Shown one piece after another: positions 12,798-27,388 of a DNA stretch of 32,000 nucleotides; within the stretch, counting starts at the first letter, position 1, and each line of letters begins with the position of its first letter. Under the pieces are notes generated by a model. The model was not told the DNA's origin. It made no database searches and saw nothing but the letters and a program-made list of their open reading frames with translations. Where the stretch lies: the NCBI RefSeq assembly GCF_042660085.1, contig NZ_JBHSTI010000008.1:90001-122000 (forward strand), given 5' to 3'. The stretch comes from Longivirga aurantiaca (GTDB lineage: Bacteria > Actinomycetota > Actinomycetes > S36-B12 > CAIYMF01). Made by a program: the position numbers and the translations under genes.

Positions 12798-12868
12798 CGT
12801 GTGCGATGAAGCGTGTGCGATGAAGGCGACCTTCATCCAATAGAGCCGAACAACTCCTCCCATCACCG
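12798..12868 (+). repeat. Intergenic repeat family, copy A (short form)
   Basis: A 14-nt tandem duplication CGTGTGCGATGAAG x2 (12798-12811, 12812-12825) leads into the 8-3-8 palindrome GATGAAGG-CGA-CCTTCATC (12819-12837). The 3' box CAATAGAGCCGAACAA and CTCCTCCCATCAC follow. The 35-nt core is identical to copy B. Confidence 0.85.
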
Positions 12869-23525: not shown

Positions 23526-23582
23526 GTTCCGGATGAAGGCGACCTTCATCCAATAGAGCCGAACAATCCTTCCCATCACGGA
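23526..23582 (+). repeat. Intergenic repeat family, copy B (short form)
   Basis: GATGAAGG-CGA-CCTTCATC (23532-23550) is followed by CAATAGAGCCGAACAATCCTTCCCATCAC. It lies in the divergent radA / AbiEi-like intergenic region. Confidence 0.85.
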
Positions 23583-23647
23583 CGGCGTTATCCACAGCCC
23601 CCGCATTCATCCTGGCCGCGGTTCCAGGCGGCGTGGAGCCTGAGGGC

Positions 23648-24634
23648 ATGCCTCGCCGCGCCGAGTGGAGCAAGGACGCCGTACGCCTGGTCGCGGCGCG
23701 TCAGCTCGGACTCATCACCAGTGCCCAACTGACCAGCCTGTCGGTTCCGCGGTCGACGATCGCGTGGTCCGAGCAGGTGGGCGGAATGTTCAGCTGGGTC
23801 CTTCCGGGGGTCCACAGGTTCGAGGGCTCTGGCCCGCTCACGCGTGATCAGGAGAACCTCGCGTCGCTCCTCTGCGGCGGGTTCGGATCCATGCTGAGCG
23901 GTGCCCGGGCGTTGGAGCTGTACGGCGTACGCGCGGCCAGGCGCCGCTCGTTCGGTGGTGACCAGTGGGCACTGGTTCTGGTGCCCCACGAGCGCAAGCG
24001 TTCGAGCCGCGAGTTCGTGCGCATCGAGCGGACTCTCTGGCTCCCGGAGCCGAGGAGCCTCGGCCTCGTCCTCGCCGCGCCACCTGCTCGTGCAGCGATG
24101 GACGCTGCCCGCGCGTGCACTGTGGAGGACGACGTCCGGGCGCTCATCTTCGAGGTGGTGCAGCGGGGGATCACGACGCCCGAGGCGCTATCAGACGAGC
24201 GGATCCGCGGCCAGATCCGCGGATCTCGTTTCGCCCGCCTCGCGCTCGAGGAGGTGTTCGCCGGCGTGCGCTCCGTCCCGGAGGGCGACGTACGGCGGAT
24301 CTTCGAATCCCGCGGCGTGACCGGGCTGCTCTACAACCCGATGCTCTACCTGCCCGACGGCAGCTTCCTCTGCTCGCCCGATGCCTACGACCCGCTCACC
24401 GGCACCGCGCTCGAGGTCGACAGCCGCGAGCATCACTTCTCGGTCCAGAGCTGGGAGGCCACGATGCTGCGCCACGGCCGCATGACCGCTGCCGGGCTCG
24501 GAGTCCTGCACTCGCCGCCGAGCCGCATCACGCGGCAACCGGACGACGTCGTCGACGAGTTCTGCCGTACGCAGTCGTCGCGTCTCGGCTGGGTGCCGAC
24601 CGTTGTCGTGCGACCCTCGTCGCCCGCCGCGTGA
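23648..24634 (+). CDS. AbiEi-antitoxin-like N-terminal domain / DUF559-like (Vsr-type endonuclease fold) C-terminal domain protein
   Basis: ATG 23648 (alternative GTG 23633). The N-terminal LVAARQLGLITSAQLTSLSVPRSTIAWSEQVGGMFSWVLPGVHRF matches the AbiEi_4-type winged-helix pattern. The C-terminal PDAYDPLTGTALEVDSREHH...MLRHGRMTAAGLGVLH resembles DUF559. No AbiEii-type partner is adjacent. Confidence 0.6.
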   Translation: MPRRAEWSKDAVRLVAARQLGLITSAQLTSLSVPRSTIAWSEQVGGMFSWVLPGVHRFEGSGPLTRDQENLASLLCGGFGSMLSGARALELYGVRAARRRSFGGDQWALVLVPHERKRSSREFVRIERTLWLPEPRSLGLVLAAPPARAAMDAARACTVEDDVRALIFEVVQRGITTPEALSDERIRGQIRGSRFARLALEEVFAGVRSVPEGDVRRIFESRGVTGLLYNPMLYLPDGSFLCSPDAYDPLTGTALEVDSREHHFSVQSWEATMLRHGRMTAAGLGVLHSPPSRITRQPDDVVDEFCRTQSSRLGWVPTVVVRPSSPAA

Positions 24635-24638
24635 CGGC

Positions 24639-25085
24639 CTAGCGCGTACGGCGAGGCAGCGGGAACCGGTCGGGGTCGACGTCGAACCGCTGGCGCGCCG
24701 TCAGCGTCGAGACGACCAGGTCGTACGAGTCCTCGACGAGCTCGCGCAGGACGTCGTCGGGCACCGATCCGTCGAGCGTGACGGAGATCCAGTGCCGCTT
24801 GTTCATGTGGTAGCCGGGCTCGATCGCCGGATGCTCAGCGATCAGCGTGGGCCCGACCTCGGGTTCGACCTTGAGCGTGACGATGCCGGGGTCGCCCCAC
24901 AGGCCGATCATCGCGAAGAGCTTGCCGCCGGCGTGGCGCCCGGTGCCGACGTCGGTCGCTGTGGCGATACCGACCTTGTACACGTTCACGTCGTCGCCGA
25001 ACGGGTGGGTCAGCGTGGCGCCGGGCAGCTCGAGCGGCATCGCGAGCGCCCTCGTCCGCTGATCCGTCGTACGCCGTCGAGCCAT
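24639..25085 (-). CDS. MmcQ/YjbR family DNA-binding protein
   Basis: 148 aa. PFGDDVNVYKVG...KLFAMIG...VTLKVEPE...GYHMNKRHWISVTLDGSVPDDVLRELVEDSYDLV is the characteristic YjbR pattern. Confidence 0.8.
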   Translation of the reverse strand: MARRRTTDQRTRALAMPLELPGATLTHPFGDDVNVYKVGIATATDVGTGRHAGGKLFAMIGLWGDPGIVTLKVEPEVGPTLIAEHPAIEPGYHMNKRHWISVTLDGSVPDDVLRELVEDSYDLVVSTLTARQRFDVDPDRFPLPRRTR

Positions 25086-25131: not shown

Positions 25132-25232
25132 GTGGTTGCCGGGATTGTTCGGCTCTATTGGATGAAGTCCCCTACCGGGCGAGGCCTCCGGCCATCGTCG
25201 CCCGGCGGGGGCCCATCCCTTCATCGCAAACG
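25132..25232 (-). repeat. Intergenic repeat family, copy C (long form with internal GC-rich hairpin)
   Basis: The minus strand reads CGTTTGCGATGAAGG-[GATGGGCCCCCGCCGGGCGACGATGGCCGGAGGCCTCGCCCGGTAGGGGA]-CTTCATCCAATAGAGCCGAACAATCCC. These are the same 5' and 3' boxes as copies A and B, with a roughly 50-nt hairpin replacing the CGA(C) loop. Confidence 0.85.
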
Positions 25233-25240
25233 ATCGAGGG

Positions 25241-26104
25241 CTATTCGGGGTCGGCGGGATGGGGGGCGAAGGGGAGGAGGGCGGCGGCGCGCTCGGCGGG
25301 GGTGCGCTGGCGGGCGGCGACCTTGCGCGCGGCGGTGAGGGCGGCCATGCGCGCCTCGCAGTGCGCCTCGAGGACGTCGTACGCCGGCTGGCCCATGAGC
25401 TCGATCAGCGTGCCCCGCTCGGTGACGTAGACCGGCTCGGGCGCGACATGCGCCTCGGTCGAGCCGCTGCAGTACCAGTCGAGGTCGTGGCCGCCCGGGC
25501 CCCAGCCGCGACGGTCGTACTCGAAGATCTGCACGAGCAGGATCTGCGTGCCGTCGGTGCGCTCGACGTGCTGGAAGGTGCGGCGTACCGGCAGCTGCCA
25601 GCACACGTCGGGCTTCACCTCGAGCGGCTGCTTCCCGATGCGCAGGGCGAGGCTGTGCAGCGAGCACCCCTCGCCACCCTCGAAGCCCTTGCGGTTGAGG
25701 AACACGCACGCGCCGTCGACCACGCGCGTCTTGCGCTGGCCGTCCTCGTCCCTCTCGACGACGCCCTTCTTGCGGCCGGTCTTCTCGTACTGCCACGTCT
25801 CGGGCGTGAGCATCGCGGCGTACTTCTTCATGCGCTTCTCGTCGTCCTTGTCCGAGAAGTGCGCGCCGAGGACGCAGCAGCCGTCGTCCGGCTTGGTCGC
25901 GTCGATGCCGTGGCAGCCGCTGCCGTAGATGCACGTCCATCGGCTCGTGAGCCAGGTGAGGTCGCAGCGGTAGACGGTGGTGCCGTCGGCGTCCGCCGGG
26001 TCGGGGAACTCGATCCACGCGCGTGGGAAGTCCAGCGGCACCTCGTCGCCGCGTCCGATGACGACGTCGACCGGACCGCTCTTCTTCTTGCCTCCACCAG
26101 CCAC
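25241..26104 (-). CDS. DUF3027 domain-containing protein (Cys-rich, actinobacteria-specific)
   Basis: 287 aa with a GTG start. Cys-rich motifs are [52 protein letters not shown] and [11 protein letters not shown], as I remember them for DUF3027. Confidence 0.75.
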
Positions 26105-26282
26105 GCCGCAACCCTAGGCCGTGGCCGCGGACCGCACGTGCCTGGGCGCCGTTCCGACGCCGCGACGAGACGTACGCCGGGGCCTCGCCCTCGCGCCGTA
26201 CGCCGACCCAGGGCGGCACGGTTGGCGCAACGCCACGGCCGCTGTACGCGGCCCCCTGGCTGGCCGGCCGGGGCTATGCAGG

Positions 26283-26375
26283 CCGGGTTCTTGCGCTCTG
26301 AGCAGCGAAGTCCCCTCCCGGGCGAGGGCTTCGCCCATCGTCGCCCGGTGGGGGCCCATCCCTTCATCGCACACG
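26283..26375 (-). repeat. Intergenic repeat family, copy D (long form, degenerate 3' box)
   Basis: The minus strand reads CGTGTGCGATGAAGG-[GATGGGCCCCCACCGGGCGACGATGGGCGAAGCCCTCGCCCGGGAGGGGA]-CTTCGCTGCTCAGAGCGCAAGAACCC. The 5' box and hairpin are clearly homologous to copy C, while the 3' box is diverged. Confidence 0.8.
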
Positions 26376-26458
26376 GGAATCGTCCGCGAGGGGTGAACAA
26401 TCGGTGCGATTGCGCGGGGCGTGTCCCCGCCCAGGCGTGCGCCGCCTAGGCTCGGGCC

Positions 26459-27388
26459 GTGCGCCTCGGAGTCCTCGACGTCGGTTCGAACACCGTCCAC
26501 CTCCTGGTGGTGGACGCGCACCACGGTGCTGCCCCGCTGCCGGCGCACTCGCACAAGGTCGAGCTCCGGCTCGCCGAGCTCATCGACCCCGACGAGCGCA
26601 TCACCGACGCAGGCGTCGACCGGCTCGTCGAGTTCGTCCGCTCGGCGCAGGAGGTGGCCGAGGACCTCGGCGTCACCCAGATGCACGCCTTCGCCACCTC
26701 GGCGATCCGCGAGGCGACGAACGGCGAGGACGTCCTGCGACTCGTCCTCGAGCGCACCGGCGTCGACCTGCAGGTGCTGTCCGGTGCCGACGAGGCCCGG
26801 CTCACCTTCCTCGCCGTGCGCCGGTGGTTCGGCTGGTCGTCCGGCCGCCTGCTCGTGCTCGACATCGGCGGCGGCTCGCTCGAGATCGCGCTGGGTTCCG
26901 ACGAGACCCCCGACGTCGCCGTCTCGCTGCCGCTGGGCGCCGGCCGTCTCACCCGGGCCTACCTCGCGCACGACCCCGCCCGGCCCGAGGAGATCAAGGC
27001 CCTGCGCAGGCACACGCGCGCGACGATCGCCGAGGTCACGGGCACGCTCGCCCGCGCCGGCGAGCCGCGCCACGTCGTCGCCACGAGCAAGACCTTCCGG
27101 TCGCTCGCCCGGATCATGGGGTCGGCGCCGTCCAGCGAGGGCCCGTTCGTGCAGCGGCTGCTCGCGCGCGACGACCTGCGCACCTGGGTCCCCAAGCTGG
27201 CGTCGATGACGGCCAGGGAACGCGCCGCACTGCACGGGGTCAGCCCTGGCCGCGCCCCGCAGCTCCTGGCCGGCGCGCTGGTCGCGGAGTCGGCGATGGA
27301 CCTCCTCGGGCTCGATGCGCTCGAGATCGGTCCGTGGGCCCTGCGCGAGGGCATCATCCTCGAGCTGCTCGACGGGCTCGACCGGTGA
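26459..27388 (+). CDS. ppx: Ppx/GppA family phosphatase (exopolyphosphatase-like)
   Basis: 309 aa. The N-terminal ASKHA phosphate-1 motif is [15 protein letters not shown], followed by [16 protein letters not shown] and [12 protein letters not shown]. Confidence 0.88.

Follow-up and report, generated by a model that had tools for sequence, protein, structure and literature searches.

Modular palindromic DNA repeats in one genus of high-GC actinobacteria, with a candidate AbiEi/DUF559-like nuclease partner

Results

Genes and repeat copies in the window

The window, i.e., the whole stretch of 32,000 nucleotides that was analyzed (G000:C8:90001-122000), comes from a 3.67-Mb assembly (genome G000; 72% G+C, 71 contigs, 96% complete) and carries four copies of a palindromic repeat, here named A to D. 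Copy A (12798..12865, + strand), a short form of subfamily A (“type A”) with a tandem-duplicated 5' box, is found directly past the terminator of a Clp ATPase. Copy B (23526..23578, +), also a short form of type A, is followed by TTATCCACAG and lies ~65 nt upstream of the ATG of a 328-aa gene (23648..24634, +), at which it is aimed, as the earlier note had observed. This gene, matched by PADLOC to AbiEi (2.9e-9), sits between copy B (+) and copy C (-) and is the candidate partner of the repeat, with a predicted AbiEi-type winged-helix N-terminal part and a predicted DUF559/Vsr-like nuclease domain at the C-terminus. In most homologues the conserved start is MPR, from ATG 23648, and GTG 23633, the first in-frame start of this frame, is probably not used.

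Downstream of the nuclease gene lie a YjbR/MmcQ-family gene (24639..25085, -; Pfam YjbR 1e-25, also matched by NCBIfam) and copy C (25134..25232, -), a long form of type A which, inverted relative to copy B, flanks the nuclease gene on its downstream side. Copies C and D are separated by a 287-aa gene (25241..26104, -) which is conserved in four related genomes; the name DUF3027 that it had been given was not reproduced, as Pfam yielded only a weak sub-threshold match to DUF3109 and NCBIfam nothing. Copy D (26277..26375, -), a long form of subfamily B (“type B”), was recovered from the sequence, from HMM and covariance-model matches at C8:116277-116375 and from the type-B pattern with one mismatch. 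Its end is 178 nt from the start of the 287-aa gene, inside the 354-nt gap that precedes the divergent ppx gene (Ppx/GppA phosphatase; 26459..27388, +; Pfam 1.9e-69), in agreement with the earlier placement.

The inner-stem swap between copies C and D

Copy D is composed of a 5' box, a nested hairpin module (26311..26358, -; nhmmer match 116358-116311, E 2e-11, and fold), a type-B 3' box and a terminal CCGGCCTGCA, and its module consists of a clamp (GGGCCCCC.../...GGGGAC), an 8-bp arm, a 4-nt bulge and an inner stem-loop. The module of copy C occupies 25168..25215 (-; nhmmer match 115215-115168, E 6e-12, and fold). The inner stem-loop of copy C reads ggcctccggcc on the + strand (25183..25193), i.e., GGCC-GGA-GGCC in the sense orientation of the - strand, and that of copy D reads gggcttcgccc (26326..26336), i.e., GGGC-GAA-GCCC. 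Thus the letters bear out the reported compensatory change, in which the third pair goes from C-G in copy C to G-C in copy D and the triloop from GGA to GAA. Likewise, the 5' boxes of the two copies are nearly identical, as had been noted (one of 15 positions differs), and so are the long arms, whose two differences both fall within the internal loop. The two copies have 69 nt in common at 91% identity (repeat family D8 of the window), including a 20-mer found twice in the window (zero expected), and both fold into the proposed long hairpin, with sense-strand z-scores of -2.8 and -3.4.

On the other hand, the 3' box of copy D, which the earlier note took to be a decayed version of that of copy C, turned out to be an intact box of the second subfamily: the box of copy D (CTTCGCTGCTCAGAGCGCAAG) is one base off the type-B pattern CTTCGYTGCTMAGAGCGCAAC, which matches 28 places in the genome, and in two related genomes the orthologous copy has the canonical box of type B. 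Moreover, copies C and D are not a local pair but members of a repeat family of ~65 loci.

Architecture and copy number of the repeat family

Iterated HMM searches of G000 returned 67 merged loci (~65 copies in 3.67 Mb), which were intergenic in all contexts examined. The type-A 3' box AGAGCCGAACAA occurs 36 times with one mismatch allowed (~38 type-A copies in all), while the type-B 3' box CTTCGTTGCTCAGAGCGCAAC gave ~24 copies in a first scan and 28 by a pattern search with two mismatches allowed. Both subfamilies have the 5' box GTKYGCGATGAAGG and the terminal CCGGCCTTCA in common and differ in their 3' boxes, CATCCAATAGAGCCGAACAA in type A and GTTGCTCAGAGCGCAAC in type B, with the complementary CTTC... 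strand fused to either of them. In either subfamily the loop consists of 4 nt (short form) or of the ~50-nt hairpin module (long form; 23 in G000), which is nested in the loop of an 8-bp palindrome and lengthens its stem. The ends of the element, GATGAAGG and CCTTCATC, are inverted with respect to each other; in one composite copy the module is flanked by TGAAGG on either side, and some type-A copies are full palindromic doublets. Copies C and D are long-form members of this modular, palindromic and non-coding family.

With respect to their neighbors, the copies showed no gene-orientation bias and no preference for gene starts or stops: the upstream/downstream neighbor types were stop/start (21), start/start (13), stop/stop (13) and start/stop (13), as counted with a rough GC3-based gene caller of 76% coverage and unreliable starts. 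Nor was there any replication-strand bias on the 2.36-Mb contig, where GC skew is weak (12 + to 8 - orientations on a stretch rich in + genes). Repeat-flanked genes were functionally unrelated (e.g., MFS transporter, SDR, dienelactone hydrolase and acyltransferase), and the genes bracketed by other inverted pairs of the repeat were ordinary housekeeping genes, with no mobility genes among them.

Several variations on this architecture were seen. Two near-identical A+B doublets in inverted orientation, at C2:245805-245914 (+) and C2:247263-247371 (-), enclose a single MFS transporter gene (L064; G000:C2:245600-247600), a layout that resembles a composite transposon or a recent inverted duplication. 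A third variant of the module interior (CTCGCGCCGGAGGAACGACGGCGCGGG) lies outside any A or B element at G000:C35:2986-3159, on a contig of 3.2 kb, opposite a type-B long form at a distance of 77 nt. A tandem duplication of the 5' box by itself (GTGTGCGATGAAG) precedes copy A (window 12798-12826), and the box is duplicated again, in a different form, at the orthologous site of genome G037 (L112); it behaves as a separable unit. A DnaA-box-like motif (TTATCCACAG or TTGTCCACAGG) stands at a fixed offset behind some elements: it is present at window 23579-23606 and, 18-19 nt past the element, in seven of 64 copies of G000, and almost all orthologues of the AbiEi-like nuclease gene have it upstream. 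With only these seven copies carrying it, a DnaA-box-like tail (TCCACAGG) was rejected as a feature of the family.

Covariation of the hairpin module

The 23 long forms of G000 were aligned (alignment A1) and scored against the structure originally proposed for copies C and D. Standard pairs made up 94.8% of the cells, five pairs were changed on both sides, and none of 500 shuffles reached the observed covariation score; controls with a slid structure dropped to 32-56% paired. Thus the earlier claim that pairing rather than sequence is conserved, made from two copies, holds over 23. The swapped pair was G-C in 11 copies, C-G in 10 and something else in two; one of these two (C21) is an alignment shift and really paired, which brings C-G to 10-11 and leaves a single truly mismatched copy (GGAC/GCCC), so mismatches in this stem are rare, and the outcome named in advance as a refutation (mismatches as frequent as compensated changes) was not seen. 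In one further copy each side of the stem has lost one nucleotide, i.e., a compensated deletion. Other pairs varied in the same manner: pair 29-58 was C-G in 18 copies and U-A in four, and pair 33-54 was C-G in 21 and U-A in two.

The A1 covariance model detected long forms in related genomes as well (seven in G007, six in G037, four in G018 and one in G010), together with weaker relatives in other genomes of the genus. Among 31 distinct copies from these relatives, 15 of the 23 pairs were changed on both sides and 91% of the cells were paired, in an alignment which was fitted to the covariance model and therefore leans toward the structure.

The two states of the inner stem did not separate into clean lineages. 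C-G was found in six type-A and three type-B copies and G-C in three type-A and eight type-B copies, and nearest neighbors over the rest of the module had the same inner-stem state in only 49% of cases. As both states occur in both subfamilies and neighbors agree so rarely, the dimorphism does not go back to one inherited event; the third-pair swap between copies C and D is an instance of a family-wide dimorphism.

Turnover of sites and copy number among related genomes

The family was found in a single genus of uncultured high-GC actinobacteria: it was absent from all 12 other genera of the order that were sampled, and the module clamp from 135 genomes of other genera in the order. In a public species collection it was found in three MAGs, with the labels Candidatus Nanopelagicales (two) and uncultured Actinomycetes (one). 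Copy number varied widely between species: type A numbered 38, 41, 29 and 34 in four genomes, with no more than one copy in the other 24, and type B reached 28, 25, 22, 21, 17 and 13 copies in six genomes, with few in several others and none in most.

Individual sites turned over to a similar extent. i) Site D holds a long type B in G000, G037 and G010 and no element in G007; its inner stem is GGGC/GCCC in G000 and G010 and GGCC/GGCC in G037, where a second pair is compensated too (variant CTGGG/CCCAG). ii) Site C is occupied by a long type A in G000 and by a short type A in G037, is empty in G010, and carries in G007 a composite in which a 5' box is followed by a worn module and this by a short hairpin. 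iii) Site A, past the Clp ATPase terminator, holds a short type A in G000, a long type B in G018 and a short type B in G037. Such turnover of sites and copy number is the behavior of mobile or rapidly converting repeats. A clean empty site with a target duplication was not recovered from G010 and G007, whose empty sites are too diverged. Contigs C94 and C6 of G007 (L107, L110 and L119) break at or beside repeat copies; the family thus fragments assemblies, and copy numbers from MAGs are lower bounds.

Could the paired changes have arisen with no selection on structure? Quasi-palindrome correction is an established mutational route, and template-switch correction combined with gene conversion might have produced them in a family that is the decaying junk of a lost mobilizer. 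The shuffling of inner-stem states against other variable sites and across both subfamilies is what conversion or recombination predicts, the subfamily can differ at one orthologous site, and copies are kept in G018, in which no orthologue of the nuclease gene discussed below was found. However, the clamp and stem stay paired across the genus despite full replacement of the interior, which is hard to explain without purifying selection; moreover, copies within a genome are very similar and variants are species-specific, which argues for ongoing amplification rather than decay. We therefore regard this explanation as unlikely, though it fares best among the alternatives to a repeat whose folded form is under selection.

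Association of the repeats with an AbiEi/DUF559-like nuclease gene

The nuclease gene between copies B and C combines two parts. Among 20 homologues, Pfam recognized AbiEi_4 in 17, REase_MTES_1575 in seven and DUF559 in one (E 0.018), and distant paralogues in G000 itself carry Pfam DUF559. The AlphaFold model of the 328-aa protein (pLDDT 87, pTM 0.82) was compared with known structures by Foldseek: its first ~200 residues matched the Streptococcus agalactiae AbiEi 6y8q (E 1.4e-4), and its last ~107 residues matched 3hrl, an endonuclease-like protein of the DUF559 type, and 3r3p, the catalytic domain of the homing endonuclease I-Bth0305I (probability 0.97-0.98, target TM-score 0.63-0.73). The block PD...LEVDSxxHH is conserved, with D245, E256, D258 and H263 invariant. 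Six other genes of G000 are recognizable by Pfam as DUF559, and none of them adjoins any of the type-A or type-B copies listed; the candidate partner is a more diverged paralogue. A Y1/RAYT transposase (PF01797) had no match in G000 (96% complete), while control genomes gave matches.

The gene is single-copy, with orthologues at 54-82% identity in at least 12 other genomes of the genus. At all 12 of the 12 orthologue loci (that of G000 included) the start is preceded by a repeat at a distance of 65-120 nt, the gene is followed by an inverted copy, and the repeat at the gene varies along with the dispersed repeats of the same genome: i) type A flanks the gene in exactly G000, G037, G007 and G001, the four type-A-rich genomes; ii) the variant CCATGACCAATAGACCC at the gene in G032 has 21 copies there and none in G000 or G015; iii) G011 has its own variant, CTTCGGTGC, at the gene and in ~20 dispersed copies; iv) the variant CCCTGGTTGCTTAGAGAGC numbers 27 copies in G017 and 24 in G004, and a further variant 12 copies in G034. 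The gene-flanking variants of G032, of G017 and G004, and of G034 are multi-copy in their own genomes only. Conversely, G010 and G018 have no gene at the nuclease locus and no type A. Thus the repeats co-occur and co-vary with the nuclease gene, the gene-flanking variant being multi-copy in the same genome in at least 10 of the 12 orthologue genomes, a co-occurrence that overstates the support since these genomes are kin and represent few independent lineages. As for type B, G018 has 17 copies, four of them long forms, and no nuclease orthologue was found in it; in G000, type A flanks the gene, and the assembly has no dedicated partner for the 28 copies of type B, among them copy D.

Inverted repeats in their own promoters serve AbiEi antitoxins for autoregulation (PMC7319586, PMC3985639), which raises the question of whether the GATGAAGG palindromes are a dispersed set of operators, bound by the AbiEi-like protein or another regulator as a regulon in which the module is a tolerated spacer. 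Every orthologue does have one copy ahead of its start, at a fixed distance, and G031 and G039, with gene-flanking copies only, fit a plain operator equally well. However, many copies lie between convergent gene ends or past stops and terminators, i.e., at places not expected to hold a promoter; with 50 bp inserted between the half-sites a dimer would no longer bind duplex DNA, yet the insert stays self-complementary; the sites turn over between close species; and the flanked genes have unrelated functions. A set of operators thus appears quite improbable as an account of the dispersed copies.

DNA repeat or structured RNA

The module itself is strand-symmetric: over its 16 pairs, G-U was found three times versus four times for A-C, and sense and antisense energies were equal. 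The outer stem, by contrast, is asymmetric (29 G-U versus five A-C, on the sense strand only), an asymmetry which stems from type B, where GCGATGAAG is opposite CTTCGYTGC; the CTTCGYTGC strand is also able to pair with GCAAC inside its own box. Over whole long forms the sense strand folded 2.5 kcal/mol better (p=0.001), and a strand-specific single-stranded form, whether RNA or DNA, could still play a part. Rfam gave no match in the window at the gathering score and, at a relaxed E-value cut-off, four sub-threshold matches only, none of them to a plausible related family.

A TANNNT hexamer 6 nt before the start is the geometry of leaderless actinobacterial genes. A conserved TAGGGT ends 6 nt before the GTG of the 287-aa gene (window 26105-26125), and TAGGCT ends 6 nt before the GTG of ppx (window 26440-26461). 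Judged from these conserved hexamers by themselves, both genes look leaderless, which would place copy D between two divergent promoters and outside any 5' UTR; scans for consensus sigma-70 promoters and terminators around copies C and D returned nothing. Most likely, copy D has no dedicated role in regulating the downstream gene.

The least probable alternative is that the long form is a structured RNA (5'-UTR element or small RNA) whose hairpin is preserved by selection on RNA folding, with copy D regulating its downstream gene: strong covariation, the somewhat better sense-strand fold of the full long form, sense-strand G-U wobbles in the type-B outer stem and the many copies directly past stop codons (which would be transcribed as 3' ends) all suit an RNA, but against it stand a strand-symmetric module, the lack of any Rfam match even at a relaxed threshold, ~65 copies that are spread over each of the four possible arrangements of neighboring genes and do not favor gene starts, single sites with different subfamilies or no element in sister species, leaps in copy number from 0 to ~40 between species, and the leaderless look of the downstream gene and ppx, by which copy D would fall between two promoters.

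Discussion

A probable selfish repeat with a candidate nuclease partner

Taken together, we think it fairly probable that copies C and D are REP/REPIN-like palindromic DNA repeats which are kept folded as DNA and have an AbiEi-winged-helix/DUF559-like nuclease as partner. The family would then probably be a selfish repeat rather than an RNA switch controlling the neighboring gene. Most likely, recognition, cutting or copying acts on the element in its folded state, a DNA hairpin or cruciform that has to keep the two GATGAAGG half-sites together: in duplex DNA the module would push the half-sites 50 bp apart, while in a hairpin or cruciform it would merely lengthen the stem. Selection for the folded DNA form would thus keep pairing and not sequence. 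Hairpin-templated correction of the palindrome probably helps to make the paired changes and, together with conversion among copies, would both supply and shuffle them. By analogy with the AbiEi autoregulators, the nuclease protein may bind the palindrome upstream of its own gene, and by analogy with REPIN-RAYT pairs it may keep the dispersed copies alive, with folding as DNA, protein binding, cutting and the route of dispersal being the steps which we infer rather than observe.

The likeness of the family to REP/REPIN-RAYT systems is threefold: i) short extragenic palindromes in tens of copies, as singlets and inverted doublets; ii) compensated stem changes and species-specific variants; iii) a single-copy gene flanked by inverted copies of the genome's own variant, although here the gene belongs to another protein family. 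Unlike the REP/REPIN elements of Proteobacteria, the present ones come with no Y1/RAYT, the partner being an AbiEi-winged-helix/DUF559-like nuclease; they have no GTAG/CGTC head, the head being GTKYGCGATGAAGG, with GTAG inside the module only (CGGTAGGGGAC); and they are built of modules, among them either of two 3' boxes and, in part of the copies, a nested hairpin of 50 nt.

The candidate partner resembles the AbiEi antitoxins of type IV AbiE systems (6y8q; M. tuberculosis Rv2827c) in the predicted fold and the profile of its N-terminal part and in the inverted repeat upstream of its own gene, as in AbiEi autoregulation (PMC7319586). Unlike in AbiE systems, no gene for an AbiEii toxin (DUF1814 nucleotidyltransferase) is adjacent, the downstream neighbor being the convergent YjbR gene; moreover, the C-terminal part is nuclease-like, and the operator-like palindrome is dispersed ~30-40 times in the genome. 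In the model, the C-terminal ~107 residues superpose on DUF559/Vsr-like endonucleases (3hrl) and on the EDxHD homing endonuclease I-Bth0305I (3r3p), but sequence similarity to these is marginal and there is no intron or intein context, and we call the protein a candidate nuclease.

Other modular intergenic repeats with short and long forms, i.e., the BIMEs of E. coli, Correia elements and the MIRUs of mycobacteria, also often abut stop codons and terminators. However, MIRUs are direct tandem units without a long palindrome, BIMEs consist of REPs and spacer motifs bound by IHF or gyrase, and none of the three has a hairpin nested in the loop of a palindrome or tRNA-Ala-linked relatives. The present analysis contributes the long-form module, its covariation, the turnover of sites and the locus where type A brackets the candidate partner.

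REP-like repeats are poorly described in Actinobacteria, and our literature searches found no paper combining AbiEi with DUF559 or REPIN/RAYT with Actinobacteria; among papers sharing the terms DUF559, palindromic and repeat, none was on such repeats. If the partnership holds, it would represent a new means by which a single-copy gene sustains or disperses a palindromic repeat, as well as a second, RAYT-independent route to REPIN-like systems, and the actinobacterial AbiEi-DUF559 fusions, which form a large orphan family, would be given a function. More generally, a compensatory swap beside a gene is not evidence of a riboregulator when the hairpin is a dispersed palindromic repeat, and masking such repeats is advisable before RNAs are sought by covariation in these genomes.

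Clamp hairpins downstream of tRNA-Ala genes

Hairpins of ~95 nt whose interiors covary freely are closed by the same clamp as the module (GTGGGCCCCCGCYG...CRGTAGGGGAC). At least six genomes of the genus have such clamp hairpins at a distance of 60-170 nt behind tRNA-Ala genes (L043:1450-1840, L054:1450-1760 and L061:1480-1960, all -; L042:1070-1340, +). At the end of each, 9-14 nt from the 3' end of the tRNA itself are repeated, in some cases as two copies in series. Rfam does not contain these hairpins, gathering and relaxed thresholds giving generic hairpin matches only. They may be the source of the module, integration remnants or a small RNA.

A wider scenario, which we offer as tentative and consider doubtful, joins the two observations: a REPIN-like partnership run by the AbiEi/DUF559 nuclease, plus a ~50-nt hairpin that colonized the palindrome loops and derived from the ~95-nt tRNA-Ala clamp hairpin. 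Were the tRNA-Ala origin true, the long form would be one repeat carried inside another, its source being linked to a tRNA; how such modules arise can seldom be observed, and the nested module with its tRNA-Ala-linked relatives provides an opportunity to do so. The 5' flank of the tRNA-Ala clamp hairpins resembles the 5' box of the repeat, and G000 itself has a diverged clamp hairpin behind its tRNA-Ala-GGC gene (C8:2198400-2198880, -).
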